Source: Lingula anatina
Lineage: Eukaryota > Animalia > Brachiopoda
Direction of reading: 5' to 3'
Length of the DNA: 64,000 nucleotides
Assembly (NCBI GenBank): GCA_051362555.1
Contig: CM120645.1
Coordinates: 10,044,001 to 10,108,000, forward strand
Made by a program: the position numbers and the translations under genes. The notes below the pieces were generated by a model. It ran no database searches and was not told the origin of the DNA. It worked only from the letters and a program-made list of their open reading frames with translations. This document shows, in pieces, positions 3,001-40,047 of the stretch (position 1 is its first letter; the number at the start of each line of letters is the position of its first letter).

Positions 3001-4337
3001 GCCAGTTTCAGAGATAAAAGGAAAGCAAAATTTGCAAAGTTCAGTTCATGGTGAAAAGTAGGTCAAAGGTCAATTTTAAGGTCACATTTAGATTGCCAGT
3101 TTATGACTTCCTATTCAAGTTTAATAGTAACTACGGGCCCATCTCGGACAGTTTCGGAGATAAAAGGAAAGCAAAATTTGCAAAATTCAGTTCATGGTGT
3201 AAAGTAGGTTAAAGGTCAATTTTAAGGTCACATTTAGATTGCCAGGATATGACTTCCTATTCAAGTTCAATAGTAACTATGGACCTATCTCTGCCAGTTT
3301 TGGAGATAAAAGGGAAGAAAAATTTGCAAAGTTCAGTTCATGGTGAAAAGTAGGTCAAAGGTCAATTTTAAGGTCACATTAAGATTGCCAGGATATGACT
3401 TCCTATTCAAGTTCAATAGTAACTATGGACCTATCTCTGCCAGTTTTGGAGATAAAAGGGAAGAAAAATTTGCAAAGTTCAGTTCATGGTGAAAAGTAGG
3501 TCAAAGGTCAATTTTAAGGTCACATGTAGATTGCCAGTATATGACTTCCTATTCAAGTTTAATAGTAACTACGGACCCATCTCGGCCAGTTTCGGAGATA
3601 AAAGGAAAGCAAATTTTGCAAAGTTCAGTTCATGGTGAAAAGTAGGTCAAAGGTCAATTTTAAGGTCACATTTAGATTGCCAGTATATGACTTCCTATTC
3701 AAGTTTAATAGTAACTACGGACCCATCTCGGCCAGTTTTGGAGATAAAAGGAAAGCAAAATTTGCAAAATTCAGTTCATGGTGTAAAGTAGGTCAAAGGT
3801 CAATTTTAAGGTCACATTTAGATTGCCAGGATATGACTTCCTATTCAAGTTCAATAGTAACTATGGACCTATCTCTGCCAGTTTTGGAGATAAAAGGGAA
3901 GAAAAATTTGCAAAGTTCAGTTCATGGTGAAAAGTAGGTCAAAGGTCAATTTTAAGGTCACATTAAGATTGCCAGTATATGACTTCCTATTCAAGTTCAA
4001 AAGTAACTATGGTCTTATCTCTGCCAGTTTTGGAGATAAAAGGGAAGCAAAATTTGCAAAGTTCAGTTCATGGTGAAAAGTAGGTCAAAGGTCAATTTTA
4101 AGGTCACATTTAGATTGCCAGTATATGACTTCCTATTCAAGTTCAATAGTAACTATGGACCTATCTCTGCCAGTTTTGGAGATAAAAGGGAAGCAAAATT
4201 TGCAAAGTTCAGTTCATGGTGAAAAGTAGGTCAAAGGTCAATTTCAAGGTCACAGTAAGATTGCCAGTATATGACTTCCTAGTCAACTTCAATAGTAACT
4301 ATGGACCTATTTCTGCCAGTTTTGGAGATATAAGGGA
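1..4337. repeat. 146-bp tandem satellite array (about 30 monomers), central array of a HINE family-1 element; runs off the window's left edge
   Basis: AGGTCAATTTTAAGGTCAC recurs at 1, 147, 293 and onward. Duplicated ORFs in the track are spaced at multiples of 146 (584, 1314). Confidence 0.97.
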
Positions 4338-5310
4338 CTTAATGTTATAATTTTGGAGTTACCATAATGTGCCTTAAATTTCGTACAGAAAAAATTAATT
4401 AAAATAAAGAAAATGTCATTTTGGTCAAAATTCTTGAAATAGGAGGTGCTCTGAAGTTTCAGAAGTTCAAATTTGATGAAATAATGTCATTTTTGAACAC
4501 AAGTTGTCTGCTTTGCCAAGCCTTATGTTTTATTTTTCCAGAGTTCAAAATTTATTATCCATTACCGTACTGCACATTTTGCTTTTACCACCAATATGTA
4601 CTTTTTAATACAGCTTAACTCGAAAACCGTATGGAATACAAAAAAACCGAGACCACATCCAGTGTTGGGCTTAACATGCTCTACAAAATGCAAAAAGGAA
4701 TGGGTCTCTAGCATTAACGGTTCCCGAATTAGAGATAGTTTTCAGTTTCGGTATCTTATGGCCGCTACTCCCATGAAAATGCACCGATTGACCCCAAATT
4801 CATGGAGATGAAAGATGACCTGAAGGGTAACACTTTCCAATAATATTATTGGTTAAGTCTGTGTGGTGTCTGAATAACAGGGAAAAAAAATTTTTTTTCG
4901 TAAAAAATTTCATTTTTTTAAAAATTTTGGCCCATTTGACCTTGAAGTAAAGGTCAAAGGTCAAATCCAAGGGTATATTTGAAATCTACACATATGACTT
5001 TTGGAAAGCCGTCTATAGAAATTTTTCCCATAACTCCTTCCGTAGGGTAGATAATAAGCATTTAATTTTGCCATTTTTAGACAAGGGTGCATTGCAATGA
5101 GTGCCACACCCAGACCCCAATACCGACAAAGCCCAAATTTTACGTGGAACGAGTTGAGATTATAGGTGACCTAAATCCATGAGATGGGTACGGGGGCCCT
5201 TACCGCCTAGGAGGAGAAGCGGTAACGGTAGGCGTCCGGCGGAGCTGGCGGAACGATCCGGACGGGACCGAAACCATGTGTACCGCCAGCGCTAACGCTG
5301 GTGGTACAAT
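1..5310 (-). mobile_element. Non-autonomous Helentron-like (HINE/DINE-type) element, family 1, left end outside the window
   Basis: The satellite array is followed by a unique module of about 980 bp, a short CCGGCGGAG-type microsatellite and a terminal hairpin TGTACCGCCAGCG-CTAA-CGCTGGTGGTACA. The same module recurs at 32322, 38850, 47203 and 64000. Confidence 0.8.
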
Positions 5311-7709
5311 AATAACTACGGACCTATCTCTGCCAGTTTTGGAGATAAAAGGGAAGCAAAATTTGCAAAGTTCAGTTCATGGTGAAAAGTAGGTCAAAGG
5401 TCAATTTCAAGGTCACAGTAAGATTGCCAGTATATGACTTCCTATTCAACTTCAATAGTAACTATGGACCTATCTCTGCCAGTTTTGGAGATAAAAGGGA
5501 AGCAAAATTTGCAAAGTTCAATTCATGGTGAAAAGTAGGTCAAAGGTCAATTTCAAGGTCACATTTAGATTGCCAGTATATGACTTCATATTCAAGTTCA
5601 ATAGTAACTATGGACCTATATCTGCCAGTTTTGGAGATAAAAGAGAAAGAAATAAGCAGAGTTCAGTTCATGATAATAAGTAGGTCAAAGGTCAAGCCAG
5701 GATATGACTTCCTATTCAAATTCAATAGTAACTATGGACCTATCTCTGCCAGTTTTGGAGATAAAAGGGAAGCAAAATTTGCAAATTTCAATTCATGGTG
5801 AAAAGTAGGTCAAAGGTCAATTTCAAGGTCACATTTAGATTGCCAGTATATGACTTACTATTCAAGTTCAATAGTAACTATGGACCTATCTCTGCCAGTT
5901 TTGGAGATAAAAGGGAAGCAAAATTTGCAAAGTTCAGTTCATGGTGAAAAGTAGGTCAAAGGTCCATTTCAAGGTCATAGTAAGATTGCCAGTATATGAC
6001 TTCCTATTGACTTCAATAGTAACTATGGACCTATCTCTGCTAGTTTTGGAGATATAAGGGACTAAATGTTATAATTTTGGAGTTACCATAATGTGCCATA
6101 AGTTTCCTAAATTAAGAAAAGGCCAGTTTTGGAGATAAAAGGGAAGCAAAATTTGCAAAGTTCAGTCCATGGTGTAAAGTAGGTCAAAGGTCAATTAATT
6201 AAAATAAAGACAAGGTCAGTTTGGTCAAAATTCTTGAGATGGGAGGTGCTCTGAAGTTCCAGATGTTCAAATTTTATGAAATAATGTCATTTTTGACCAC
6301 AAGTTGTCTGCTTTGCCAAGCCTTATGTTTTATTTTTCCAGAGTTAAAATTTATTATCCATTACCTTACTACACATTTGTCTTTCACCACCAATATGTAC
6401 TTATTGATACAGTGTAACTTTCCAGATAAAAGGGAGGCAAAATTTGCAAAGTTCAATTCATGATGAAAAGTAGGTCAAAGGTTAATTTCAAGGTCACAGT
6501 AAGATTGCCAGTATATGACTTCCTATTCAAGTTCAATAATAACTACGGACCTATCTCTGCCAGTTTTGGAGATAAAAGGGAAGCAAAATTTGCAAAGTTT
6601 AGTTCATGGTGAAAAGTAGGTCAAAGGTCAATTTCAAGGTCACATTTGGATTGCCAGTATATGACTTTCAGTTCAGTTCAATAGAAACTATGGACCTATA
6701 TCTGCCAGTTTTGGAGATAAAAGGGAAGCAGAATTTGCAAAGTTTAGTTCATGGTGAAAAGAAGGTCAAAGGTCAATTTCAAGGTCACATTTAGATTGCC
6801 AGTATATGACTTCCAATTCAAGTTCAATAGTAACTATGGACCTATCTCTGCCAGTTTTGGAGATAAAAGGGAACCAAAATTTGCAAAGTTTAGTTCATGG
6901 TGAAAAGTAGGTTAAAGGTCAATTTTAAGGTCACATTTCGATTGCCAGTATATGACTTCCCATCAAGTTCAATAGTAACTATGGACCTATCTCTGCCAGT
7001 TTTGGAGATAAAAGGGAAGCAAAATTTGCAAAGTTCAGTCCATGGTGTAAAGTAGGTCAAAGGTCAATTTCAAGGTCAGAGTAAGATTATCAGTACATGA
7101 CTTCCTATTCAACTTCAATAGTAACTATGGACCTATCTCTGCCAGTTTTGGAGATAAAAGGGTACCAAAATTTGCAAAGTTCAATTCATGATGAAAAGTA
7201 GGTGAAAGGTCAATTTCAAGGTCACATTTAGATTGCCAGTATATGACTTCCTATTCAACTTCAATAATAACTATGGACTTATCTCTGCTAGTTTTGGAGA
7301 TATAAGGGACTAAACGTTATAATTTTGGAGTTACCATAATGTGCCATAAATTTCCTACAGAAAAAATTAATTAAAATTAAGAAAAGGTCATTTTGGTCAA
7401 AATTCTTGAAATGGTAGGTGCTCTGAAGTTCCAGAAGTTCAAATTTGATGAAATAATGTCAATTTTGACCACAAGTTGTCTGCTTTGCCAAGCCTTATGT
7501 TTTATTTTTCCGGAGTTCAAAATTTATTATCCATTACCGTACTGTATATTTTGCTTTCACCACCAATATGTACTTTTTGATACAGCGTAACTTTCGAGAT
7601 AAAAGGGAAGTAAAATTTGCAAAGTTCAATTTATGATGAAAAGTAGGTCAAAGGTTAATTTCAAGGTCACAGTAAGATTGCCAGTATATGACTTCCTATT
7701 CAAGTTCAA
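5311..7709. repeat. More diverged 146-bp satellite monomers interleaved with pieces of the family-1 unique module
   Basis: Same monomer as 1-4337. Module fragments lie at about 6052-6420 and 7300-7590. Confidence 0.9.
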
Positions 7710-11278: not shown

Positions 11279-12044
11279 CTGGTAGCAAAATGAACATAAC
11301 TTGCAAACTAATGGAGGTAACTTGAAAGTTAACATAATTGGCATAATCCCTCAGAATTTTCAGGCGAACAAGTGGGCAAATGAAAAAAAAAAGTGCATAA
11401 GATAAATCAACTTTTTTTTTTTACTCATTACCAAATAAGAAATTGTAGTTTTTAACTGGCCATAACTCTTGATACTGCATGTAAATATAAAAGTTATTCC
11501 ATTTTCATTTAGCTTGAAATATTGGGTTTTAAAAATGTATACTTTGTATGGGTAATAAAGGCAAACAAATAAATTATGGCCAATTTACTGGGGTGACCCG
11601 GCTTTTCAAGGCTAGCTCGCAATATTAATAAGGTCGCGCGACAAGGTTATTTTCAGTTGCACTCTGGATTACGCACGCTTGCTCCGCAAGGTGTCGCCTG
11701 TTGAGGGGGGGCAGCACAGCCCATGTGGTTACTGTGACGAAGGTGACAAGTACTTCCAAACATTTTTCAAAACTGTCATTATTCCTCATTCTATTCACAA
11801 ATTTGATATTGTAACGCGAGGGGTCGGGCCCGAGCGACGGCGACACCCATGCGCGGCGTGGGAACTTGGATGTTTCTTAGGGAAAGTATATCCCTGTCCT
11901 TCAGAAATAAAGAGGCAGATTTATGTTTTAATAAATTTTACTAAACGGATAAATCGACCATAAAATTCTCAAGTCAGTGGTGACTATCACATGACTTATT
12001 GTCATAAATGTCTATAAAATTGAGAAGTTGGCGTTGCGCGTAGT

Positions 12045-12785
12045 GTGAGATGACATCTGAGATGGAGTCGACCTCGTTGACCGCACTGCGTTGGATGGCA
12101 TCGTTAATGGAATCGGGTAGCGTGCGATGACATCAGGCATCTCTAGTAGTAACCATGTGTAGGACGGCCTCGTTGACGGTTCGCGTTAGATGACATCGTT
12201 GATGGAATTGGGTAGCGTGCGATGACATCTGGCATCTCTGGTGGTAACCATGCGTAGGACGGCCTCGTTGACGGTTCGCGTTAGATGACATCGTTGATGG
12301 AATTGGGAAGCGTGCGATGACATCTGGCATCTGTAGTGGTAACCATGTGTAGGACGGCCTCGTTGACGGTTCGCGTTAGATGACATCGTTGATGGAATTG
12401 GGTAGCGTGCGATGACATCTGGCATCTCTAGTGGTAACCATGCGTAGGACGGCCTCGTTGACGGTTCTCGTTAGATGACATCGTTGATGGAATTGGGAAG
12501 CGTGCGATGACATCTGGCATCTGTAGTGGTAACCATGCGTAGGACGACCTCGTTGACGGCACCGCGTAGATGGCATCGTTGATGGAATTGGGTAGCGTGC
12601 GACGACATCTGGCATCTCTAGTGGTAACTAAGCGAAGGACGACCTCGTTGGCGGTTCGCGTTAGATGGCACCGTTGATGGAATTGGGAAGTGTGCGACGA
12701 CATCTGGTGTCTCTGGTGGTAACTACGAAAAGGACGGCCTCGCTGACGGCACCGCGTTGGATGGCATCGTTGATGGACGTCGTTG
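12045..12785. repeat. 95-bp CpG-rich tandem repeat (about 7.5 units) inside the LTR
   Basis: GACGGCCTCGTTGACGG recurs every 95 bp (12163, 12258, 12353...). Second copy at about 22041-22781. Confidence 0.93.
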
Positions 12786-13189
12786 ACCCTCACTTTGTTT
12801 CTTCTTGGTATCAGCTGGCTGAATAAGGTATCTGGTGTTCCCAATGGGATAACTAAGGAAACTAAAATAAAAACTACCCCCAAGTCTCATGGAGGATTTC
12901 ACCGCGCACTTGGACTGGAACATCATCAACAGCACCAAGTTGACGTCTGCGCCGATGGCGCCCCGGACCCGTACGGCCTTTCACCCGAGGATGAGATGTG
13001 CACTTCTCTTCGCCATCAAAACCAGCAGCAACCTTGGCCAGGAACCTGTCAACTGCACCCCAAGGTCTTGGCCAGGAACTTGTCAACTGCAGCCAAGGGA
13101 CCAATTCCTACATGCTGGAACCCCTCCTCACCAGGAAAAACACCTCCATATTCAGTCAGCCAACTGTCCACTTAAAAACTTAATAATGG

Positions 13190-13610
13190 CTAGGAGCACT
13201 TATATTAAAGAGAGGGTGCTGCCCTCTAAAAACTCACTGATCTAACTTTGTAAAACCATAGCTAAATAAGCTTGCCAATCACCTTATTTGTTAAAAGCAT
13301 AAACCACTTGACTTAGGTAACTTAACGAATTCTCTGACCTTCGGCTTAGCACTTTATTAAAGAGAGGGTGCCACTCTCTGAAAAGCTCACAAATCCAACC
13401 TTGTATGACCATAGTTACATAAGCTTGCCAGTCGCCTTACTTGATAAAGACATTAACTTGGCGGTATAAGTCCACCCTTCTAATTAGGTAACTTAATGAA
13501 TTCTCTGACCTTAGCACTTTATTAAAGAGAGGGTGCCACTCTCTGAAAAGATCACAAATCTAACCTTGTATGACCATAGTTAAATAAGCTTGCCAGTCGC
13601 CTTACTTGTT
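13190..13610. repeat. Direct repeat of about 155-165 bp (three copies) inside the LTR
   Basis: AGCACTT(T)ATTAAAGAGAGGGTGC..CTCT recurs at about 13194, 13348 and 13513. Confidence 0.8.
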
Positions 13611-13704
13611 TAAAACTCAGAAACTAGTGGTAATTAATCTAACGAGCAAATGTCGGTAAATTTTAAATGACCCAAACATTAAAGATAATCGGTTTCCATA
13701 TAGT

Positions 13705-15103
13705 AATAACCCCTTAAGGTAACTCGAGATAACTTGTCCTCTTATAGAGATAACCCCTTAAGATAACTTAAGATAACCTACAGAGATAACCTAAGATAAG
13801 CTTTGATCTCATAGAGATAACCCATTAAGATTACCTGAGATAACCTAGGATAACATGTTCTCTTATAGAGATAACCTGTAAAGATAACTTAAGATAACCT
13901 ATAGAGATAACCTGAGATAACCTTTGATCTTATAGAGATAACCCATGAAGATAACCTGGGATAACCTATAGAGATAACCTAAGATAACATGTTCTCTTAT
14001 AGAGATAACCTGTTAAGATAACTTAAGATAACCTATAGAGATAACCTGAGATAACCTTTGATCTTATAGAGATAACCCATGAAGATAACCTGGGATAACC
14101 TTTGATCTTATAGAGATAACCCATTAAGATAACCTAGGATAACCTGTAGAGATAACCTAAGATAACATGTTCTCTTATAGAGATAACCTGTTAAGATAAC
14201 TTAAGATAACCTATAGAGATAACCTGAGATAACCTTTGATCTTATAGAGATAACCCATTTAGATAACCTAAGATAACCTATAGAGATAACCTAAGATAAC
14301 ATGTTCTCTTATAGAGATAACCTGTTAAGATAACTTAAGATAACCTATAGAGATAACCTGAGATAACCTTTGATCTTATAGAGATAACCCATGAAGATAA
14401 CCTGGGATAACCTATAGAGATAACCTAAGATAACATGTTCTCTTATAGAGATAACCTGTTAAGATAACTTAAGATAACCTATAGAGATAACCTGAGATAA
14501 CCTTTGATCTTATAGAGATAACCCATGAAGATAACCTGGGATAACCTTTGATCTTATAGAGATAACCCATTAAGATAACCTAGGATAACCTGTAGAGATA
14601 ACCTAAGATAACATGTTCTCTTATAGAGATAACCTGTTAAGATAACTTAAGATAACCTATAGAGATAACCTGAGATAACCTTTGATCTTATAGAGATAAC
14701 CCATTAAGATAACCTAAGATAACCTGTAGAGATAACCTAAGATAACATGTTCTCTTATAGAGATAACCTGTTAAGATAACTTAAGATAACCTATAGAGAT
14801 AACCTGAGATAACCTTTGATCTTATAGAGATAACCCATTAAGATAACCTGGGATAACCTATAGAGATAACCTAAGATAACATGTTCTCTTATAGAGATAA
14901 CCTGTTAAGATAACTTAAGATAACCTATAGAGATAACCTGAGATAACCTTTGATCTTATAGAGATAACCCATTAAGATAACCTGGGATAACCTATAGAGA
15001 TAACCTAAGATAACATGTTCTCTTATAGAGATAACCTGTTAAGATAACTTAAGATAACCTATAGAGATAACCTGAGATAACCTTTGATCTCCTAGCGATA
15101 ACT
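13705..15103. repeat. GATAAC-based minisatellite with 134/178-bp higher-order units in the 3' LTR
   Basis: (A)GATAAC occurs mostly every 10-13 bp. The marker AACATGTTCTCTT recurs 9 times at 134/178-bp spacing. Confidence 0.95.
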
Positions 15104-15851
15104 ACAGTAACATAGACGAACAGGTAAAAGAGAAGAAGAAAAAAAAAATTAACTGAACATCACTTAATTACTTGCACAGGGAGTGCAAAACAACAGAAGC
15201 GGGTAATTAGTGGTGAAAAACGGTTAATAGTAAAAAAAAGGGAGGTCATGGGGAAGCTACGCGAAATATCTAAATAGAGACCGTAACTTCGATCTAGCAA
15301 CTACTACAAGTTGAACTTGCTAAAATTAGATAAAGTTTCATTAAATTCAGTTCCAAACTACATAGAAAATGGCTAATGACAGGCGGGTTACCCCCGCGGG
15401 GGCACCCTCTAAATAAAATCTAACTCACTGGTACTATAGGCTGTTGATTCTGTCGAGAGGGGAGTCAGCTTTTCGAAGAACCCCCGCTTTGGCTCTGCAG
15501 CCCTATTTATAGACTCCGTTACGTCATGCTCGCGCTGCGGTCAAAGGTCGAAGGTCGCGACCTAACAGCATGGCCGCTCTGCATGGAAGTGTCACTAACT
15601 TGTGTATTGTAGATTTAGCGCCGTATTTCCATTATTTGGGATTTAAATGAAGAATTAACCTATGGGTTTAGTTGGATAAACTCCAGGACATATGTCTCTA
15701 AGGAAAAACGAAGTCTTAGGTAAGATTTAATGTAAAATTATTGAAGAAAAGTAGATTCCGGTCATAGCAGACGATCGTGCAGCACATGTTTACATTGTTT
15801 CTAATGATTTTAAATAGCAGATTCGTGGCTCCTGTGACCCCCTTTGTTACA

Positions 15852-15868
15852 CTGCCCCCACCCTTTTA
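15852..15868 (-). other. Polypurine tract
   Basis: Minus strand reads AAAAGGGTGGGGGCAG immediately before the 3' LTR start TGTAAC. Confidence 0.9.
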
Positions 15869-16032
15869 AAATTGATTCTCCTGAATCAAGAACAAGTACT
15901 GTAGGTAGATAAACACTATTTTAATAAAGTGAAAACTATATAACAGATGGCCATGAGTACATTTTAAGTTATTGAATATTGTCCGCAAGAGTACTGTCCC
16001 TGTATAGTCTGTGAGAAGAGATTCATTTTAAG

Positions 16033-16070
<38 letters not shown>

Positions 16071-16148
16071 ATTACACTTTGCCTTAAAAAAAAAATGATT
16101 TTAATAGTAATAATAATTCATAAACATCGTCTTAGATAAGCATTGCAG

Positions 16149-16658
16149 TCAACAAAAGAAATTTCTAACGATCATTCGTCTTCCATCTGGATAAATTGTT
16201 TCCTTTTCAGTGAACCTTGTCACCCTGCCATACAGGGTGGCAATGCTTGTGTCTGACTGATCTACACGTGCAGCAAGTGACTTCCTGGCAGGCATTGGTG
16301 TACTCTCACCATCCTCCACGTCCACGTCCTCGTCCGATGACCAACCTCCTGTTGGGGGCTCTGGCGTCATGTTCAGCCTGATACCCTTCCCACCTGTTGT
16401 CGGGCGTGGAGCTTTCCTTGGGGGCTCTTCTGCTGGTGTTTCCTCAAGGAGGGAGGCTTCCTCTTCCCTCCCCACCATTACCTGCACTGGCTGGTGACGG
16501 GCCTGTTGATGTTTCATCAATTCGCTTTCTGTGGTATAAGACCTGTCGCAATTCTTCTCCATGCACTTATACGTTTCGTGCATGGCCACTTCATGCCTCC
16601 TGCGGTTCGATCTTGAGGAAAAATGTAAACTGCAGTACTTGCATTTCTGACCTGGCAT
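16149..16658 (-). CDS. Accessory ORF3 of the retrotransposon: two C2H2 zinc fingers, acidic region, histone-tail-like motifs
   Basis: CKYC..F.....HEVAMH and CMEKNC..Y.....L..HQQARH. The frame is open from 16688; the likely start MPGQK at 16658 follows a TTTATTTTAG acceptor. Same strand as gag/pol, in the env position. Confidence 0.8.
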   Translation of the reverse strand: MPGQKCKYCSLHFSSRSNRRRHEVAMHETYKCMEKNCDRSYTTESELMKHQQARHQPVQVMVGREEEASLLEETPAEEPPRKAPRPTTGGKGIRLNMTPEPPTGGWSSDEDVDVEDGESTPMPARKSLAARVDQSDTSIATLYGRVTRFTEKETIYPDGRRMIVRNFFC

Positions 16659-17024
16659 CACTAAAATAAAGGTGGATTTATCATTCATTTCATTTTATGC
16701 GTTCATAAGATTTTTTTTTTTTTTTTTTTCGTGACCTTCAGCACAGATAAGGGGGTAGGTTATTCAGTGATTAGTAAAAAAAAAACAAACAAAAAAAAAA
16801 ACAAACAATTCTGCCAAATTCCTTAATAAATTTGAATAAAATTAAGTGGATGCGGAAACTCTCACTCCTCCCCTTTCAGTGGCCTGGCTGCCTGACCTTT
16901 GGACAGCTCGCCTCGCCCTCCACTCTCAGGGGAGCTGAGAGCTTTGAGCAACTTGAGCCAGCCGAGACAGAGTGCCACCGTCTGGGAAGGAATAGGGAGA
17001 TCCATACATCACACCTGTAATCTT

Positions 17025-20000
17025 CTACTGGCAGTAGGGTTTCAAATTGTCGTAGTGGACGACACGAAATTTGTTGCGATTTAGTCTAATTCGATAGATC
17101 AAATCCGAAATTCTCTCTAAAATTTCAAAAGGGCCAGACCACTTCTGCTGTAACTTCGGGCTGAAGCCTTTCTTCTTGGAAAAATCGTAATACCACACTT
17201 TATCTCCCACTTCATATTTCTGACCATGGACACGGAGGTCGTAGTTACGCTTCTGGATTTGAGCACTTTTCTTCAACTTTTCTCCTGCACGCTGCCACAC
17301 TGTAGCTAGATTCTCCCGTAATTGGCGTGCGTAGTTCGTTTGCAGTTGATTCATAGGTGGTTCCTCTATCATCAGGTGAACTGGCAGATCTACTTCTCTG
17401 CCCAGCATAAGCATATTGGGTGTCTCTCCCGTAGATTCATGCCGGGAACTTCGATAAGCCATCAGATAAAGAGGAATTCTCGTGTCCCAATCTTTCTGCT
17501 GCTGTTCAGGTGCCAGCATTTTTGAGATTCCTGCCAAGAGAGTACGATTAAATCTCTCAACCAAGCCATCGGACTTAGGGTTGAAAGGCGTGGTTCTCGT
17601 TTTGTTGATTCCCATAATTTGACAAATTTCCTGAAAAACATTTGACTCAAAATTTCTTCCCTGGTCTGAGTGTATTGAAGTAGGAGTTCCAAATCTGCTT
17701 ATCACTTCTTCTACTAGCTTTGACGCCACTGTGTCTGCCTCTTGGTTTGGTAATGGAAAAGCCTCCACCCATTTTGTAAAATAGTCGCACACAACTAGGA
17801 TAACCCGATTTCCCCTATGTGTTTCTGGAAAAGGACCAAGGATATCTACTCCTAAACGTTCCATTGGTGCTCCCACCAGAGATTGCTGCAGAGATCCTCT
17901 AAATCTTTTGCCCGTCGATTGATGGGCCTGACACTGCTCACAAGATCGGCACCAGGAATGCACATCGGCAGTTATCCCCGACCACCAGTACCTTTCTTGT
18001 ATGCGCCCAAGTGTTCTTTTCTCGCCCAAGTGGCCCGCTGTTGGATCGGAGTGACAGCCTTTCAGAATTTCATCCCTGAATACTCTTGGAATAATAATCA
18101 AGCTTCGCTCTATCTTCCCATCATTGGACTGCTCCTGAGTACATAATACTTCAGTCTCGAGTTTTAACTGTTCCCACTTACTAAAGTAATGTTTTGTGGC
18201 TGCCGTCCATGGGCTGACGCCGTACGCTGGTGGTTCAGCACTTTCTCTCAAAGCTTTGACAACAGGTGCAATGTCAGGGTCCCTTTCCTGCTCTGCTTTA
18301 ATGTTTTCTAGCGAAATCTCAGGGCGAAGAGAGATTGTTCTTACGAATCCCGGTTCTTGGTATAGGTGATTCTTCTTCACCCACCGTCTCTTCAGTATTT
18401 TGCCTTGTTGTTCCTCCTCCTCAGGTCTTCCACATTGGTGACAGGGTTTTCTGGAAAGACCATCTGCGTTTCCGTGACTCCTCCCGGCTCTGTGTTCCAA
18501 TCTGGGTTGGTATTCCTCTACTACCTGGATCCAACGTGCTAACTGACCTTCGGCGTCTTTCATACGTAAAAGCCAAGTCAATGCGGCATGGTCGGTTCTG
18601 AGGGTGAAATCTTGTCCATACAGATATTGCCGAAAATGTTTCATAAAGTGGACAGCTGCGAGAAATTCTTTCCTGGTTACACAATAGTTTCTTTCAGCTT
18701 TTCCTAAAGCTTTGCTGGCATAAGCAATGACCTTTTCTTGCCCGTCTTGAACTTGTGACAGGACAGCTCCAATTCCACAATTACTTGCGTCGGTGTCTAA
18801 AATAAACTTCCCCTCGGCCCTTGGATATGCCAGAATCGGAGAACGCGTCAACTTATTTTTCAACTCTTGAAAAGCTTCTTCACTTTCCTGTGTCCATCGG
18901 AACTGGTCTCCCTTCTCGGTTAACTTGTGAAGTGGCCTTGCTATCTTGGCAAACCCTCGTATGAATCTTCGGTAGTATGATGCTAACCCTAGGAAACTTC
19001 TTACTTCTGTGACTGTCTTGGGTACCACCCAATCTTTGACTGCCTGAATCTTCTCGGGATCCGTCTGTATTCCCTCTGCGGATACTATATGGCCCAGGTA
19101 GGTAACTTCTTTTTGAAAGAAATGACACTTATTAGGCTTGAGTTTTAACTTTGCTTCGCGCAATCTTCCAAACACCTCTCGAAGACGCCCAAGTTCCTCT
19201 TCAAAAGTCTTCCCATATACAATGACATCGTCTAAGTAGACTAACAGCGTCTGCCAGTGTAACCCTGATAAAATTCTCTCCATAAGGCGTTCGAACGTTG
19301 CAGGAGCATTGCAAAGCCCAAACGGCATAACCCGCCATTGGTATAGTCTGCCACGGACTGTGAATGCTGACTTCTCCTTAGCTTCTTTATCGAGTTCCAC
19401 TTGCCAATATCCACTGGCGAGGTCAGCTGTAGAAAACCAGATAGCACCAGAGAGGGCATCAAGGGTGTCATCTATGCGTGGAAGTGGATACGAGTCTTTA
19501 ATCGTGACGGCATTTAGTTTACGATAATCTACACAAAATCTGGTGGACCCATCTTTCTTCTTCACTAGTACGATAGGCGAAGCCCAGGGACTGTAGGAAG
19601 GTTCAATGACACCTTGTTTCAACATTGTCTTCACATGTTCTGCTGCTTCTTCTATTTGCTTGTTAGGAAGGCGACGATAAGGTTGTCGGATCGGAGTGGC
19701 ATTCCCTGTGTCTATACTGTGTTTAACTACGTCGGTTCTTCCTAAGTCCATGTCCCCTTCTGCGAAGATGTCTTGGAATTCAGTCAGTAGCTGCTTTACG
19801 TCTTCTTTTTCTGCTTCACTTAAATGCTTGCAACTTCTACGCCAAATATCGTGCAAAAACTCTGGTAAGTCAGGCGTTGCTGGTGACTTGTTCACAGATC
19901 TGATCCACGTGCCTGTGGAACAGGGTGGCAGGGATTGTACTTCCTCCGCTTCAGTGACTGTTCCTACTGTAGTTCCTTGGTAGAGTGTTATAGGATCCGG

Positions 20001-20714
20001 GCCCGGATTATAAACTTTAACTGGTAATGGCTCTGTAGACAAGTCGAGGAATGCCCTGGCCACAAGCAATCCTCTACCTGCAATTTTGTCCGGTCTGGTA
20101 TTTTCGATGATTCCACTCATACTTCTGCCCGGTTGGTCTGATGAGAACAGCTCACCTTCTACTACCACTTCATTTCCAGGTGGCACTAAAGTGTTATGCT
20201 TTACTTTCACAGCAGCAATAAAAGGGGTTGCTTCTTTATTCACGCAAGGGATCTTCTGACCCTCACAGGAGATCTGGAAACCATTAAAGTCAAGAACACT
20301 TCCTTTCTGTAATAAAAAGTCAATGCCTAGGATTCCATCATACGGAACTTCTGCCACTATCACCTTCTTCTGGGTTATAGTTTGGCCCACCTGTAAGTCT
20401 ACCCATGCTTGACCATACACTGGCAGGGGTTTTCCATCAGCCTGGTAAACAACTTCATTTAGATTCTCCAAGGTCGGTCTTCTGTAACTCTCTATGGCTT
20501 GGTAACTTTTCAATGAGATGATGGTGTCTGTGGCTCCAGTATCAACTAGTAACGTAACAGGAACACTAAAAATTTTAGCAACAACAAACAAACCCTTATT
20601 AACATCTGAAGCCGGAATTCTCCCATTATGTACATCACCATCATCTTCATTGGGGACCTTTACTGCTTTCTTGGCCTTGTCTCGGTCCACTGACGTGACC
20701 AGGTTCCGTTTCCC
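17025..20714 (-). CDS. pol: Pol polyprotein (protease, RT, RNase H, integrase), probably made as Gag-Pol by -1 frameshift
   Basis: LLVDTGAT protease; PWASP..KKDGS..VDYR..YLDD RT; LDTDAS RNase H; HH-CC zinc finger; DDE core (VDILGP, HSDQG, LVER); WSGPF motif. No stops. Confidence 0.97.
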   Translation of the reverse strand, partial: GKRNLVTSVDRDKAKKAVKVPNEDDGDVHNGRIPASDVNKGLFVVAKIFSVPVTLLVDTGATDTIISLKSYQAIESYRRPTLENLNEVVYQADGKPLPVYGQAWVDLQVGQTITQKKVIVAEVPYDGILGIDFLLQKGSVLDFNGFQISCEGQKIPCVNKEATPFIAAVKVKHNTLVPPGNEVVVEGELFSSDQPGRSMSGIIENTRPDKIAGRGLLVARAFLDLSTEPLPVKVYNPGPDPITLYQGTTVGTVTEAEEVQSLPPCSTGTWIRSVNKSPATPDLPEFLHDIWRRSCKHLSEAEKEDVKQLLTEFQDIFAEGDMDLGRTDVVKHSIDTGNATPIRQPYRRLPNKQIEEAAEHVKTMLKQGVIEPSYSPWASPIVLVKKKDGSTRFCVDYRKLNAVTIKDSYPLPRIDDTLDALSGAIWFSTADLASGYWQVELDKEAKEKSAFTVRGRLYQWRVMPFGLCNAPATFERLMERILSGLHWQTLLVYLDDVIVYGKTFEEELGRLREVFGRLREAKLKLKPNKCHFFQKEVTYLGHIVSAEGIQTDPEKIQAVKDWVVPKTVTEVRSFLGLASYYRRFIRGFAKIARPLHKLTEKGDQFRWTQESEEAFQELKNKLTRSPILAYPRAEGKFILDTDASNCGIGAVLSQVQDGQEKVIAYASKALGKAERNYCVTRKEFLAAVHFMKHFRQYLYGQDFTLRTDHAALTWLLRMKDAEGQLARWIQVVEEYQPRLEHRAGRSHGNADGLSRKPCHQCGRPEEEEQQGKILKRRWVKKNHLYQEPGFVRTISLRPEISLENIKAEQERDPDIAPVVKALRESAEPPAYGVSPWTAATKHYFSKWEQLKLETEVLCTQEQSNDGKIERSLIIIPRVFRDEILKGCHSDPTAGHLGEKRTLGRIQERYWWSGITADVHSWCRSCEQCQAHQSTGKRFRGSLQQSLVGAPMERLGVDILGPFPETHRGNRVILVVCDYFTKWVEAFPLPNQEADTVASKLVEEVISRFGTPTSIHSDQGRNFESNVFQEICQIMGINKTRTTPFNPKSDGLVERFNRTLLAGISKMLAPEQQQKDWDTRIPLYLMAYRSSRHESTGETPNMLMLGREVDLPVHLMIEEPPMNQLQTNYARQLRENLATVWQRAGEKLKKSAQIQKRNYDLRVHGQKYEVGDKVWYYDFSKKKGFSPKLQQKWSGPFEILERISDLIYRIRLNRNKFRVVHYDNLKPYCQ

Positions 20715-21667
20715 TGGTGTGGCTCAGTTCTGCAGTCTCTGGCGTAGTGACCTTTGTTTCCACATTGATAGCAAGTGGCTTCTTTTCTGTACCCCTGGTT
20801 AACTGTGCGTCTCTCTAGTTCAGCCTTCAGCTTCTTCACTTCCTGTTCCAACTGTTTCACTTTTTCATCTTCACAGGGTTCTGCAGACGTCACACGTACT
20901 TGTCTTCTCATATGACTTTTCTCTCCTATTCTTTCAGCCTCCAGGAAAGACTCCATTCCTGCAGCGGCTCGTATTGCGTCCTCTAGACTTCTACATTGCG
21001 CCTGGAAAATTCTGCTCCTTAGGTCCCTATCGTCCACAGCGTCTTGGAAATGGATTCGTGCCAGCCTATCTTGTGACTCTCTATTCAACTCTGGATACGC
21101 CAGGGCTGTCAATCTCTTAATGGCCTGGCCCAATTCTCTCAAGGTTTCGTTAGGCCTCCTCCTCCTATTTCTTAACTCGGCCACGTAAAGCTCTGCTCCA
21201 CGTCCAGGTCCAAACTGGTGAGCTAGAAGATGAACTAACTGGCGGTATGAGACCATTCTTCCATCTTCCTGTGCGTCACTCAACGTCGCCTGAGCAGTTC
21301 CTCGTAGGCTGGCTGCTAGAAAGCTCGCTTTCTCCTCCTCATCCCAGCCATTTATTCTGGCACAGCTCTCAAAGTGACAGTAATAATCGGCCCATGGTGT
21401 ATTTCCTTCATAGCGGTCAGGGACATAGCTGGGCCTTCTTCCATAGTTTAGGCCGGACCCTGCTCTCGGTAGACCCGGGGAAGCTAGAAATCGCCTTATA
21501 ACCTGGGGACTCTCCTCTGTCACCACTTCATCTTCAGCTATGGTGCTGGCACTGGACCCCACTGGTGCTCCTTCCCGTGGAGTGGCTTCTCTCAGGTTTA
21601 GGATTACTTCTGATTCTTTAGACTCACTCGCCATATCTGCATCCTCGCGCTTCCCATTGGTCGCCAT
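20660..21667 (-). CDS. gag: Gag with CCHC zinc knuckle
   Basis: PDRYEGNTPW..Y..HFE..A..NGW capsid-like motif and CYQCGNKGHYARDC knuckle. Likely start MATNGK at 21667; the track ORF starts inside the PBS. Confidence 0.93.
   Translation of the reverse strand: MATNGKREDADMASESKESEVILNLREATPREGAPVGSSASTIAEDEVVTEESPQVIRRFLASPGLPRAGSGLNYGRRPSYVPDRYEGNTPWADYYCHFESCARINGWDEEEKASFLAASLRGTAQATLSDAQEDGRMVSYRQLVHLLAHQFGPGRGAELYVAELRNRRRRPNETLRELGQAIKRLTALAYPELNRESQDRLARIHFQDAVDDRDLRSRIFQAQCRSLEDAIRAAAGMESFLEAERIGEKSHMRRQVRVTSAEPCEDEKVKQLEQEVKKLKAELERRTVNQGYRKEATCYQCGNKGHYARDCRTEPHQGNGTWSRQWTETRPRKQ
20708..20714 (-). other. -1 ribosomal frameshift slippery site G GGA AAC
   Basis: In-frame X XXY YYZ heptamer in the gag/pol overlap. 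pol is in the -1 frame and open from here. A stem GGTCAC..GTGGACC lies just downstream. Confidence 0.8.
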
Positions 21668-21786
21668 CTTCCTCTTAAACAATGAAATATAAATGGTCAT
21701 TAATTTTGCCAAAAGTTGAAATAAATCTAGCCTCAATTCTGGGGGTGATTTTCTGAAGGACTTTCCCACTGTTTTTCTGAAAGACG

Positions 21787-21804
21787 ATCCCACCGCTGCC
21801 ACCA
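21787..21804 (-). other. Primer binding site, tRNA-Leu (AAG/TAG type)
   Basis: TGGTGGCAGCGGTGGGAT, 1 nt from the 5' LTR, is complementary to the metazoan tRNA-Leu 3' end ATCCCACCGCTGCCACCA. Confidence 0.9.
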
Positions 21805-23700
21805 TTGTAACGCGAGGGGTCGGGCCCGAGCGACGGCGACACCCATGCGCGGCGTGGGAACTTGGATGTTTCTTAGGGAAAGTATATCCCTGTCCTTCAG
21901 AAATAAAGAGGCAGATTTATGTTTTAATAAATTTTACTAAACGGATAAATCGACCATAAAATTCTCAAGTCAGTGGTGACTATCACATGACTTATTGTCA
22001 TAAATGTCTATAAAATTGAGAAGTTGGCGTTGCGCGTAGTGTGAGATGACATCTGAGATGGAGTCGACCTCGTTGACCGCACTGCGTTGGATGGCATCGT
22101 TAATGGAATCGGGTAGCGTGCGATGACATCAGGCATCTCTAGTAGTAACCATGTGTAGGACGGCCTCGTTGACGGTTCGCGTTAGATGACATCGTTGATG
22201 GAATTGGGTAGCGTGCGATGACATCTGGCATCTCTGGTGGTAACCATGCGTAGGACGGCCTCGTTGACGGTTCGCGTTAGATGACATCGTTGATGGAATT
22301 GGGAAGCGTGCGATGACATCTGGCATCTGTAGTGGTAACCATGTGTAGGACGGCCTCGTTGACGGTTCGCGTTAGATGACATCGTTGATGGAATTGGGTA
22401 GCGTGCGATGACATCTGGCATCTCTAGTGGTAACCATGCGTAGGACGGCCTCGTTGACGGTTCTCGTTAGATGACATCGTTGATGGAATTGGGAAGCGTG
22501 CGATGACATCTGGCATCTGTAGTGGTAACCATGCGTAGGACGACCTCGTTGACGGCACCGCGTAGATGGCATCGTTGATGGAATTGGGTAGCGTGCGACG
22601 ACATCTGGCATCTCTAGTGGTAACTAAGCGAAGGACGACCTCGTTGGCGGTTCGCGTTAGATGGCACCGTTGATGGAATTGGGAAGTGTGCGACGACATC
22701 TGGTGTCTCTGGTGGTAACTACGAAAAGGACGGCCTCGCTGACGGCACCGCGTTGGATGGCATCGTTGATGGACGTCGTTGACCCTCACTTTGTTTCTTC
22801 TTGGTATCAGCTGGCTGAATAAGGTATCTGGTGTTCCCAATGGGATAACTAAGGAAACTAAAATAAAAACTACCCCCAAGTCTCATGGAGGATTTCACCG
22901 CGCACTTGGACTGGAACATCATCAACAGCACCAAGTTGACGTCTGCGCCGATGGCGCCCCGGACCCGTACGGCCTTTCACCCGAGGATGAGATGTGCACT
23001 TCTCTTCGCCATCAAAACCAGCAGCAACCTTGGCCAGGAACCTGTCAACTGCACCCCAAGGTCTTGGCCAGGAACTTGTCAACTGCAGCCAAGGGACCAA
23101 TTCCTACATGCTGGAACCCCTCCTCACCAGGAAAAACACCTCCATATTCAGTCAGCCAACTGTCCACTTAAAAACTTAATAATGGCTAGGAGCACTTATA
23201 TTAAAGAGAGGGTGCTGCCCTCTAAAAACTCACTGATCTAACTTTGTAAAACCATAGCTAAATAAGCTTGCCAATCACCTTATTTGTTAAAAGCATAAAC
23301 CACTTGACTTAGGTAACTTAACGAATTCTCTGACCTTAGGCTTAGCACTTTATTAAAGAGAGGGTGCCACTCTCTGAAAAGCTCACAAATCCAACCTTGT
23401 ATGACCATAGTTACATAAGCTTGCCAGTCGCCTTACTTGATAAAGACATTAACTTGGCGGTATAAGTCCACCCTTCTAATTAGGTAACTTAATGAATTCT
23501 CTGACCTTAGCACTTTATTAAAGAGAGGGTGCCACTCTCTGAAAAGATCACAAATCTAACCTTGTATGACCATAGTTAAATAAGCTTGCCAGTCGCCTTA
23601 CTTGTTTAAAACTCAGAAACTAGTGGTAATTAATCTAACGAGCAAATGTCGGTAAATTTTAAATGACCCAAACATTAAAGATAATCGGTTTCCATATAGT

Positions 23701-25344
23701 AATAACCCCTTAAGGTAACTCGAGATAACTTGTCCTCTTATAGAGATAACCCCTTAAGATAACTTAAGATAACCTACAGAGATAACCTAAGATAAGCTTT
23801 GATCTCATAGAGATAACCCATTAAGATAACCTGAGATAACCTAGGATAACATGTTCTCTTATAGAGATAACCTGTAAAGATAACTTAAGATAACCTATAG
23901 AGATAACCTGAGATAACCTTTGATCTTATAGAGATAACCCATGAAGATAACCTGGGATAACCTATAGAGATAACCTAAGATAACATGTTCTCTTATAGAG
24001 ATAACCTGTTAAGATAACTTAAGATAACCTATAGAGATAACCTGAGATAACCTTTGATCTTATAGAGATAACCCATGAAGATAACCTGGGATAACCTTTG
24101 ATCTTATAGAGATAACCCATTAAGATAACCTAGGATAACCTGTAGAGATAACCTAAGATAACATGTTCTCTTATAGAGATAACCTGTTAAGATAACTTAA
24201 GATAACCTATAGAGATAACCTGAGATAACCTTTGATCTTATAGAGATAACCCATTTAGATAACCTAAGATAACCTATAGAGATAACCTAAGATAACATGT
24301 TCTCTTATAGAGATAACCTGTTAAGATAACTTAAGATAACCTATAGAGATAACCTGAGATAACCTTTGATCTTATAGAGATAACCCATGAAGATAACCTG
24401 GGATAACCTATAGAGATAACCTAAGATAACATGTTCTCTTATAGAGATAACCTGTTAAGATAACTTAAGATAACCTATAGAGATAACCTGAGATAACCTT
24501 TGATCTTATAGAGATAACCCATGAAGATAACCTGGGATAACCTTTGATCTTATAGAGATAACCCATTAAGATAACCTAGGATAACCTGTAGAGATAACCT
24601 AAGATAACATGTTCTCTTATAGAGATAACCTGTTAAGATAACTTAAGATAACCTATAGAGATAACCGGAGATAACCTTTGATCTTATAGAGATAACCCAT
24701 TAAGATAACCTAAGATAACATGTTCTCTTATAGAGATAACCTGTTAAGATAACTTAAGATAACCTACAGAGATAACCTGAGATAACCTTTGATCTTATAG
24801 AGATAACCCATGAAGATAACCTAGGATAACCTGTAGAGATAACCTAAGATAACATGTTCTCTTATAGAGATAACCTGTTAAGATAACTTAAGATAACCTA
24901 TAGAGATAACCTGAGATAACCTTTGATCTTATAGAGATAACCCATTAAGATAACCTGGGATAACCTATAGAGATAACCTAAGATAACATGTTCTCTTATA
25001 GAGATAACCTGTTAAGATAACTTAAGATAACCTATAGAGATAACCTGAGATAACCTTTGATCTTATAGAGATAACCCATGAAGATAACCTAGGATAACCT
25101 GTAGAGATAACCTAAGATAACATGTTCTCTTATAGAGATAACCTGTTAAGATAACTTAAGATAACCTATAGAGATAACCTGAGATAACCTTTGATCTTAT
25201 AGAGATAACCCATTAAGATAACCTGGGATAACCTATAGAGATAACCTAAGATAACATGTTCTCTTATAGAGATAACCTGTTAAGATAACTTAAGATAACC
25301 TATAGAGATAACCTGAGATAACCTTTGATCTCCTAGCGATAACT
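23701..25344. repeat. GATAAC minisatellite in the 5' LTR (11 higher-order units)
   Basis: Same structure as 13705-15103 with two more units (111 + 134 bp). Confidence 0.93.
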
Positions 25345-25744
25345 ACAGTAACATAGACGAACAGGTAAAAGAGAAGAAGAAAAAAAAAATTAACTGAACA
25401 TCACTTAATTACTTGCACAGGGAGTGCAAAACAACAGAAGCGGGTAATTAGTGGTGAAAAACGGTTAATAGTAAAAAAAAGGGAGGTCATGGGGAAGCTA
25501 CGCGAAATATCTAAATAGAGACCGTAACTTCGATCTAGCAACTACTACAAGTTGAACTTGCTAAAATTAGATAAAGTTTCATTAAATTCAGTTCCAAACT
25601 ACATAGAAAATGGCTAATGACAGGCGGGTTACCCCCGCGGGGGCACCCTCTAAATAAAATCTAACTCACTGGTACTATAGGCTGTTGATTCTGTCGAGAG
25701 GGGAGTCAGCTTTTCGAAGAACCCCCGCTTTGGCTCTGCAGCCC

Positions 25745-25767
25745 TATTTATAGACTCCGTTACGTCA
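25745..25767 (-). promoter_or_regulatory. Putative LTR promoter: TATA box with upstream CRE-like site
   Basis: Minus strand reads TGACGTAACGGAGTC-TATAAATA about 340 bp from the LTR start. Copy at 15504-15526. Confidence 0.6.
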
Positions 25768-27224
25768 TGCTCGCGCTGCGGTCAAAGGTCGAAGGTCGCG
25801 ACCTAACAGCATGGCCGCTCTGCATGGAAGTGTCACTAACTTGTGTATTGTAGATTTAGCGCGGTATTTCCATTATTTGGGATTTAAATGAAGAATTAAC
25901 CTATGGGTTTAGTTGGATAAACTCCAGGACATATGTCTCTAAGGAAAAACGAAGTCTTAGGTAAGATTTAATGTAAAATTATTGAAGAAAAGTAGATTCC
26001 GGTCATAGCAGACGATCGTGCAGCACATGTTTACATTGTTTCTAATGATTTTAAATAGCAGATTCGTGGCTCCTGTGACCCCCTTTGTTACAATATTTAC
26101 GGCAATGGAAAATGTGGCACTGGCAAAAGTGGGTCTAGGTGCGTGGACCTGCCGCACAGGTGTCCCCAACATTAACCGCTGCCAGAGAATCCCGAAGCAT
26201 TAAACTACACAACCTGTAGATATTTGAAATTTGGCCAAAGTTAAGTAAATGAGGCTTTATTAGATTTGGGTAGAAATAGAGAGGAATGTCCAGTGACATG
26301 CCAAACCCCTAAGTTTAAGTCTTGGCCTTTGACACCTGTAACGCACCCCTTAGTCAAGAATCTGAACAAATCAACGTTGGGCAGGTATGCTTTGTTTTCT
26401 ACTGGCGCTTTTGTGATTTTATCAACTTGATTGTCCAGTGCCAGACCTTTTGTTCCCAGGTACTAGTAGCAAACTTTATCAGATAACAATCTGACACTAA
26501 CCACGCTGTACTAACAGCGCCGTAAACCCAGTTATCAATGCTGTCATCTTTACCTGTATCTCTATCGGTATTATACCAGTGGTACGTCCGATATATATAT
26601 CAGTAAGGAAATATGCTGTGATGCTTATATTTATTTGTAATACGTTAGCATCAGCCTGTTCATAAAAACTTGGAACCTTTCAGTATTATTACACAATAAC
26701 AGTATATTGACATCATGGGAGTTGTTATGATTAAATGCTTAGAAGAAATAATAAAAACAGATTACGTAAAATAAAAAATGAATTAATTTTATTTGAGTTA
26801 TTTTTTTTCAAACCAATTAATTATCAAACATGAATATTATTTTCAGAAACATCAACATATATTACTGCATTATAAATCTGCTGGTACACAGATCTACAGT
26901 TCTAAAATGCAAATACCAAGTACCTTTCACACACAAACGATGACATGTAAATAGTCATATGTATAAAGTAGTAAAAATTTCACAAAATGTGTGTAGGCAA
27001 GATATTTCTACAAGTAACCTCATTAATCAGTCAGGAAACTTCATAATGCCCTCAATAAATGTAGAAATTTGAGCAAGAGAAATTCTACATACATGTGTAC
27101 AGGCATGACAGATTTACCATATATTGCCACCAACCTTAAACTGAATGGGCATTTTAAAGAACAAAGTGAGTTAAAAATGAATAAGTAATAAAAAACAGAT
27201 ACTGTCATTCTTAACACTGAAAAA

Positions 27225-38850: not shown

Positions 38851-40047
38851 TAATCCATAAGGCTTGGCAAAGCAGACAACTTGTGGTCAAAAATGACATT
38901 ATTTCATCAAATTTGAACTTCTGGAACTTCAGAGCACCTCCCATTTCAAGAATTTTGACCAAAATGACCTTTTCTTTATTTTAATTAATTTTTTCTGTAG
39001 GAAATTTATGGCACATTAAGGTAACTCCGAAATTATAACATTTAGTCCCTTATATCTCCAAAACTGGCAGAGATAGGTCCATAGTTACTATTGAAGTTGA
39101 ATAGGAAGTCATATACTGGCAATCTTACTGTGACCTTGAAATTGACCTTTGACCTACTTTTCACCATAAATTGAACTTTGCAAATTTTGCTTCCCTTTTA
39201 TCTCCAAAATGGCAGAGATAGGTCCATAGTTACTATTGAACTTGAATAGGAAATCATATACTGGCAATCTAAATGTGACCTTAAAATTGACCTTTGACCT
39301 ACTTTTCACCATGAACTGAACTTTGCAAATTTTGCCTCCCTTTTATCTCCAAAACTGGCAGAGATAGGTCCATAGTTTCTATTGAACTTGAATATGAAGT
39401 CATATACTGGCAATCTAAATGTGACCTTGAAATTGACCTTTGACCTACTTTTCACCATGAACTGAACTTTGCAAATTTTGCTTCCCTTTTATCTCCAAAA
39501 CTGGCAGAGATAGGTCCATAGTTACTGTTGAACTTGAATAGGAAGTCATATACTGGCAATCTAAATGTGACCTTGAAATTGACCTTTGACCTACTTTTTA
39601 TCATGAATTAAACTTTGCAAATTTTGGTTCCCTTTTATCTCCAAAACTGGCAGAGATAGGTCCATAGTTACTATTGAACTTGAATAGGAAGTCATATACT
39701 GGCAATCTTTCTGTGACCTTGAAATTGACCTTTGACCTACTTTTCATCATGAACTGAACTTTGGAAATTTTGCTTCCCTTTTATCTCCAAAACTGGCAGA
39801 GATAGGTCTATAGTTACTTTTGAACTTGAATAGGAAGTCATATACTGGCAATCTAAATGTGACCTTGAAATTGACCTTTGACCTACTTTTTATCATGAAT
39901 TGAACTTTGCAAATTTTGGTTCCCTTTTATTTCCAAAACTAGCGAGATAGGTCCATAGTTACTATTGAACTTGAATAGGAAGTCATATACTGGCAATCTA
40001 AGTGTGACCTTGAAATTGACCTTTGACCTACTTATAATCATGAACTG

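Follow-up and report, generated by a model that had tools for sequence, protein, structure and literature searches.

A C2H2 zinc finger gene and GATAAC arrays in a Ty3/Gypsy retrotransposon of Lingula anatina: a possible self-regulatory system

VANDALs are DNA transposons of plants. In Arabidopsis, the VANDAL-encoded protein VANC acts on a dense motif that is repeated in one orientation in non-coding tandem repeats, and both binding and demethylation have been demonstrated (PMC5735166, PMC10398659, sections consulted). Here we describe a similar arrangement, known from sequence alone, in a Ty3/Gypsy long terminal repeat (LTR) retrotransposon of the brachiopod Lingula anatina. The element lies in a stretch of 64,000 nucleotides (contig CM120645.1, positions 10,044,001 to 10,108,000), which we call the window and to which all coordinates refer. 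Its LTRs contain dense GATAAC arrays of one orientation, and its third open reading frame, ORF3, encodes a C2H2 zinc finger protein. As an LTR retrotransposon with a C2H2 protein it falls outside the VANC family, and the word 'zinc' has no occurrence in the consulted text of PMC5735166. The contrast extends to the arrays: the window array is nearly CpG-free, and most of the relatives that we found carry the gene without an array.

Three other systems are close. Foamy-virus Tas/Bel1 is like ORF3 in that its gene lies past the structural genes and ahead of the 3' LTR; its product binds the DNA of its own LTR and has an N-terminal DNA-binding part and a C-terminal effector, a layout that we propose for ORF3 as well (PMC4929722, sections consulted). 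However, Tas is a retrovirus gene that acts on the LTR and on an internal promoter, activation has been shown for Tas and is only proposed for ORF3, and those sections mention neither C2H2 fingers nor an array of 100 sites (PMC4929722). No Tas/Bel1 family was among the Pfam and solved-structure matches of ORF3. Spm TnpA and other transposase-derived regulators gain specificity through clusters of neighbouring motifs on cognate copies, as is the layout here, but they belong to plant DNA transposons, and the consulted main text contains neither 'retrotransposon' nor 'zinc finger' (bioRxiv 10.64898/2026.08.24.746577). LTR retrotransposons of bdelloid rotifers, also invertebrate elements, have family-specific third ORFs of captured origin that are made from spliced messages; these encode GDSL esterases, DEDDy exonucleases, and coiled-coil or membrane proteins, whereas 'zinc' and 'tandem' occur 0 times in the sections consulted (PMC5408684). 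By analogy, the ORF3 system would work like Tas, VANC or TnpA while being a member of none of these families. Element-encoded, sequence-specific self-regulators are established in plant DNA transposons and complex retroviruses, and we found none described for animal Ty3/Gypsy elements. Our literature search found neither a C2H2 ORF3 nor such arrays in this group, although Repbase, subscription papers and supplements may mention such ORFs; 'zinc' and 'ORF' occur 0 times in the paper on the MolGy clades (PMC6238403).

A first-pass annotation of the window had reported an intact two-finger C2H2 ORF at the env position and suggested that it forms, with the array, a system analogous to VANC. An open frame of 169 aa is indeed there at 16658-16149; it follows the pol stop (17025) and precedes the polypurine tract. 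Its fingers follow the C-x2-4-C-x12-H-x3-5-H pattern and are separated by four residues, from the last His of finger 1 to the first Cys of finger 2. The helix residues were also as annotated, S-1/S2/N3/R6 in finger 1 and T-1/S2/E3/K6 in finger 2. Pfam matched zinc-finger families only (zf-C2H2, E 1.8e-6, two stretches), so that ORF3 does not look like a membrane fusion glycoprotein of the errantivirus env type. We propose, with a little less than even confidence, that the two-finger protein binds the GATAAC array in its own LTR and acts as a family-specific regulator, most likely as an activator. That ORF3 binds the array at all, whether for activation or for repression, we put at little better than even. 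Splicing would yield the message for ORF3, as it does for env. Within the protein, finger 1 (N3, R6) would read GA(T) and finger 2 would contribute little specificity, while some 100 same-strand sites just downstream of the promoter would offset the weak two-finger specificity through their density. The acidic middle of ORF3 would then recruit host machinery, giving positive feedback on transcription of its own family, and this feedback would also serve copies without reverse transcriptase (RT) and integrase. Anti-silencing in the VANC sense might be a further role by analogy.

Since ORF3 has no close homologue in protein collections, relatives were sought through pol. Searches with ORF3 itself gave 0 of 24 candidates by word search, 98 matches by full phmmer (generic zinc fingers, none confirmed as ORF3) and generic C2H2 clusters only in the ESM Atlas; no relative was found in viral contigs, and metagenome contigs yielded one 1.4-kb locus without an ORF3 region. 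The pol relatives came from bacterial genome records with animal-type retroelement contigs (52 loci and 80 further contigs), which we infer to be host carry-over. In a tree of 121 RT-RNase H sequences, built without reference elements of named clades such as the MolGy clades, the window element fell inside a clade of support 0.83. A sense-strand C2H2 region followed integrase in 22 of 39 clade members, the window included, versus 0 of 31 elements outside, and the antisense control gave 0 of 39 and 1 of 31. This survey applied a leave-one-out profile to at most 2.2 kb past integrase in those 70 tree members that have 500 bp or more there; because close relatives stayed in the profile and five loci of genome G002 are near-duplicates, 22 overstates the number of independent cases. 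The ratio of non-synonymous to synonymous rates (dN/dS), which had been suggested as a check, was 0.12-0.42 in the six of 11 ORF3 pairs that could be estimated; dS was saturated in the other five. On these comparisons, the clade-wide C2H2 ORF3 is a real gene under purifying selection. In 8 or more of 23 relatives, ORF3 is directly preceded by a pyrimidine-CAG stretch that resembles the candidate acceptor of the window, which suggests that its message is spliced, as with other third ORFs (PMC5408684). Of 17 aligned elements, 15 carry Arg at +6 of finger 1. Eight contigs of genome G003 that share the primer site are degenerate and yielded no ORF3.

The GATAAC arrays are far denser than expected. 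The 3' LTR contains 101 sites and the 5' LTR 120, with one site per LTR outside the array and none in reverse orientation; the Markov expectation is 2.4 per LTR, and the other ~55.7 kb of the window contain 21 sites on either strand. The annotated density thus held (100 and 119 sites within the arrays, five per 67-bp half-unit and ten per 134 bp). The claim that the sites are mostly one helical turn apart held in part: 38 of 99 spacings are 10 bp, but 38 are 13 bp and 21 are 21 bp, and helical phasing at 10.5 bp was rejected (vector length 0.02). The array has a CpG observed/expected ratio of 0.07, while the neighbouring 95-bp repeat is CpG-rich. Among 11 distinct 67-bp units, which were cut at an anchor outside the hexamer core, 1 of 30 core columns is variable compared with 15 of 28 spacer columns (Fisher p 1.6e-5). 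Since the hexamer is constrained, some reader of the GATAAC word is likely, though the constraint does not indicate which reader. One could instead regard the array as a neutral slippage satellite with a chance fit to the fingers. In its favour, the array already differs by 245 bp between the two LTRs, and longer-unit tandem repeats occur in non-coding parts of elements without a finger match, such as L064, L082 and L093; no short-motif array was seen in elements without a finger gene. We disfavour this explanation, the least probable of those considered, since the core is conserved against its spacer and since a second core, TGAGG, is kept across unalignable LTR DNA of relatives.

That second core provides the best match between fingers and array. 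In the relatives L018, L020, L022 and L054, finger 2 keeps R-1, D2, N3 and R6 (R-x-D-N-x-x-R, code GAG-G) while positions 1 and 5 vary, and finger 1 keeps R6. Selected fingers that bind GAG include RKDNRKR and RSDNLTR (PMC1920264, Table 1 as consulted). Asp at position 2 makes a cross-strand contact, and together with Arg at 6 of the next finger it points to a following G (PMC7293014, sections consulted). The LTR arrays of L020, L022 and L054 contain GAGG 11, 7 and 3 times in antisense and 0 times in sense, always as TGAGG; these are visible sites, as the L020 array has an assembly gap and the other two are cut by contig ends, and L018 has no LTR sequence. The orientation is that of GATAAC in the window. 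The unit lengths and flanks of the three arrays differ, and the LTR DNA of L054 has a match of 21 bp at most to L020 and none to L022. L020 shares the primer site of the window and has a long LTR whose array, as in the window, lies past a TATA box, in this case starting about 200 bp after it. The rough chance of finding that 4-mer within a 5-bp core is 1.6%. It is possible, though we hold it more loosely than the proposal for the window, that a large invertebrate Ty3/Gypsy clade carries its own C2H2 transcription factors, that some lineages co-evolve finger residues with LTR arrays as a private switch per family, and that a fold with which animal hosts silence transposons has been turned into the transposon's anti-silencing or activating tool.

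In the window, only finger 1 fits GATAAC (N3 and R6, GA). Arg at +4 does not disable finger 1, since the triplets bound by selected x-x-x-N-R-x-R fingers are GAA, GAT, GAC or GAG, and the form x-x-S-N-R-x-R is among the selected GA(N) readers (PMC1920264, Table 1 as consulted). The variable array bases are those 5' of GAT, the expected target of finger 2; this fits a relaxed finger 2 and is not positive evidence. Outside the array, sites of the two-finger code are not enriched. The host factor tramtrack (PDB 2DRP) has two HX4H-type fingers, of which finger 1 shares S2, N3 and R6 with window finger 1, and finger 2 shares R-1, D2 and N3 with finger 2 of the L018, L020, L022 and L054 lineage. The similarity is weak (E 0.15) and no descent is implied. 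We take finger 1 of tramtrack to read GAT, which our literature search did not confirm.

Several observations weigh against binding of the array by ORF3. The good match comes from one lineage (RT 77-89% identical) and was found after four groups had been inspected. As the first-pass annotation had cautioned, finger 2 fits poorly: its predicted triplet adjoining GA has 0 occurrences in the array. The invariant AAC of GATAAC is unexplained by the two-finger code, the GA or GAT match is at the 12-48% chance level, and the GA(N) code of the window would equally fit the GAG of the relatives. Read by eye, the GATAT-rich 65-bp repeat of L055, just past its TATA box, and the 30-bp repeat of L057, past its ORF3, mismatch their own fingers. 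As to co-variation of finger residues with arrays, another suggested check, fingers and array fit in one lineage (three elements), fit in part in the window and do not fit in L055 or L057. Moreover, eight of ten complete LTRs of finger-bearing elements (540-1250 bp, about four lineages) have no array or dense motif, so the pairing of protein and array is not obligatory. The missing close homologue counts here too, as does RNA coverage of ORF3: two runs have roughly one read pair each over it, and no splice joint was seen. Within the species, ORF3 variants (five non-synonymous and three synonymous, eight among the 40 of 512 differences listed) show no departure from neutrality; none of those listed falls on a zinc ligand or on residue -1, 2, 3 or 6 of a helix. 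A 'PDG' likeness between the C-termini of the window ORF3 and those of L020, L022, L119 and P0284 was rejected, with profile scores of -0.7 and about 0, below shuffles.

Some of these points would be expected if a GATA-type factor of the host used the array as a homotypic cluster of sites for tissue-specific transcription, while ORF3 is a real gene that acts on something else, be it RNA, a protein, host genes or a few sites in other parts of the element. WGATAR is the consensus of GATA factors. The 3' LTR has 94 WGATAR and 93 AGATAA sites, so that host GATA factors could explain the conservation of the hexamer, and A precedes GATAA in 27 of the 32 distinct contexts; this too speaks against ORF3 as the reader. 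The presence of ORF3 without an array in most complete LTRs and the misfit of finger 2 favour the host factor as well. However, 12 GGATAA sites are off the GATA consensus and yet keep the core, and the TGAGG core of the second lineage, which is non-GATA and in the same place and orientation, fits its own fingers, which must then be coincidence. We consider this main rival unlikely on balance. The suggested analogy with VANC thus survives in part: ORF3 is clade-wide and selected, the hexamer is conserved and the core of one lineage matches its fingers, but most complete LTRs are array-free and finger 2 has no site.

The position of the array bears on two further explanations. The sole TATAAA of the LTR is at LTR position 341, behind a TGACGT that we take to be a CRE-like (cyclic AMP response element) motif. 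The array occupies LTR positions 750-2370 and begins about 410 bp downstream, outside U3; it lies past the likely start site, in what would be R or a leader intron. AATAAA signals follow it at LTR positions 2574 and 2739 and would place it in R. Four RNA runs gave 59, 32, 1 and 4 reads of the element and no splice joints, and among indexed runs no RNA run was listed as a carrier of window sequence. In run X14 (32 reads, weak), depth was 2.3-2.8 in bins 15110-15573 and 0 in 15574-16501; it starts near the TATA bin and extends toward the array. ORF3 might bind the array and repress, forming a roadblock past the start site by which the element would limit itself and hold down its copy number. The place of the array, the scarcity of element RNA and a relative with fingers fused to a BTB domain agree with such repression, but Pfam recognised no repressor motif in ORF3, its middle is acidic, and host silencing or the choice of tissue would explain the scarce RNA equally well; we regard repression as improbable. 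The array could also act as RNA. Much like the Tat/TAR pair, ORF3 or a protein of the host would then bind the GUUAUC repeats in R. The array is likely transcribed, with TATA upstream, AATAAA downstream and reads running toward it, and its strict single-strand orientation would suit an RNA. Yet its RNA structure is no stronger than that of shuffles (z -0.06) and the code matches are on the DNA strand opposite the transcript, and we think this explanation very unlikely.

If ORF3 does regulate its own family, protein-site co-evolution in a selfish element would be predictable from sequence, because C2H2 fingers have a usable recognition code, and easily tested. It would also reverse the usual picture of zinc fingers as a host weapon against transposons. 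Should the array serve a host factor instead, the literature searched still appears to contain no description of a C2H2 ORF3 that runs through a whole clade and has swappable modules at its C-terminus (BTB and a domain without a name, with TatD in a sister branch).

The element occupies 11810-26092 on the minus strand and is an intact Ty3/Gypsy LTR retrotransposon (Table 1). Its pol has the domain order protease-RT-RNase H-integrase, and TG...CA LTRs, a primer-binding site, a polypurine tract and a target-site duplication are all present. Among named proteins, those closest to its pol come from molluscs and arthropods (Haliotis, Pinctada, Trichonephila, Diaphorina). The LTRs have nine mismatches, two of them outside the array, and one 245-bp gap inside the array; with just two differences outside the array, the insertion is very young. 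The primer-binding site is presumably of tRNA-Leu type. A single-sequence structure model of ORF3 had a mean predicted local distance difference test score (pLDDT) of 54.6, with low confidence in the terminal beta-sheet; this model and a second fold model (pLDDT 57.7) were both weak, and Foldseek gave no match at E 0.001.

Table 1. Coordinates of the features of the element in the window.
Feature	Position	Strand	Remarks
3' LTR, TG...CA	11810-15851	-	4042 bp
GATAAC array, 3' LTR	13728-15102	+	100 sites, strand opposite element sense; 67/134-bp higher-order units
Polypurine tract	15852-15867	-	
ORF3, 169 aa	16149-16658	-	two C2H2 fingers; middle acidic and proline-rich; residues 137-168 predicted as a three-stranded sheet
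Finger 2 (C32-H55)	16494-16565	-	helix T-E-S-E-L-M-K; predicted site absent from array
Finger 1 (C6-H27)	16578-16643	-	helix S-R-S-N-R-R-R; predicted GA(N) reader
Candidate splice acceptor	16661-16675	-	2 nt ahead of ORF3 ATG
pol: protease, RT, RNase H, integrase	17025-20723	-	1232 codons stop to stop, no internal stop
gag, 335 aa	20660-21667	-	with CCHC knuckle
Primer-binding site	21787-21804	-	identical in L020 and L022
5' LTR	21806-26092	-	4287 bp
CpG-rich 95-bp tandem repeat, 7.4 copies	22068-22773, also 12072-12777	.	CpG observed/expected 1.38
Two AATAAA signals	23349-23519	-	in ~140-165-bp direct repeats downstream of array
GATAAC array, 5' LTR	23724-25343	+	119 sites
Candidate splice donor	25664-25672	-	~80 bp past TATA box
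Likely core promoter, 5' LTR	25745-25767	-	TGACGT then TATAAATA; copy at 15504-15526 in 3' LTR
Target-site duplication ATAT, 4 bp	11806-11809 and 26093-26096		

Copies of the element in DNA runs were seen through collapsed contigs, with the arrays outside read mapping. A deletion form skips 17028-19651 at a 7-bp microhomology (junction 17027/19652); most of RT, RNase H and integrase is gone, while gag, protease and the ORF3 side are kept. It was present in three of four DNA runs (X1, X2 and X9) from two studies, and further internal deletions were listed. A helper relation between the full element and the deletion form is possible.

The relatives vary in what follows pol. A conserved C-terminal ORF3 domain of about 80 aa, with no Pfam or fold match, was found in L022 (7188-7511), L020 (384-713), L119 (1690-1989) and P0284. 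The ORF3 of L091 (7326-9086) has C2H2-like fingers at its start and BTB/POZ at its end (PF02214, E 6.6e-13), a layout like that of a transcription factor. In a branch within the clade, L072 (9097-11439) and L080 (7518-9032) have a long ORF3 with a TatD nuclease domain at its end (E 2.5e-41 and 6.4e-43 in Pfam), and by similarity this type is also in L074, L076, L094, L099 and L101. L118 and L128 have the finger region fused in frame to the end of pol (open frames of 708 and 3079 aa). In L060, L061 and L066, a TATA-like word about 35 bases ahead of the ORF3 ATG takes the place of the splice acceptor, which suggests an internal promoter for ORF3 in this branch. Among the outgroups, L085 (6439-8172) has an env of baculovirus-F type (E 9.4e-12), and L068 and L108 have past pol an ORF that looks esterase-like by eye only, without a Pfam match in L068. 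The bacterial genome records G001, G002, G003 and G006-G010 have 12 to 141 animal-type retrotransposon pol matches each, indicating heavy host carry-over.

Elsewhere in the window, a 146-bp satellite occurs in several blocks and in both orientations (1-7309, 33444-40047 and 45039-46287). An RNase H-like fragment of another retroelement is at 52948-53526, within a G-skewed stretch at 50-54 kb. The palindromic word TCCTATAGGA is arrayed at 56673-60607 in units of 10-34 bp and 176 bp; these arrays are likely to be the subterminal repeats of another element.

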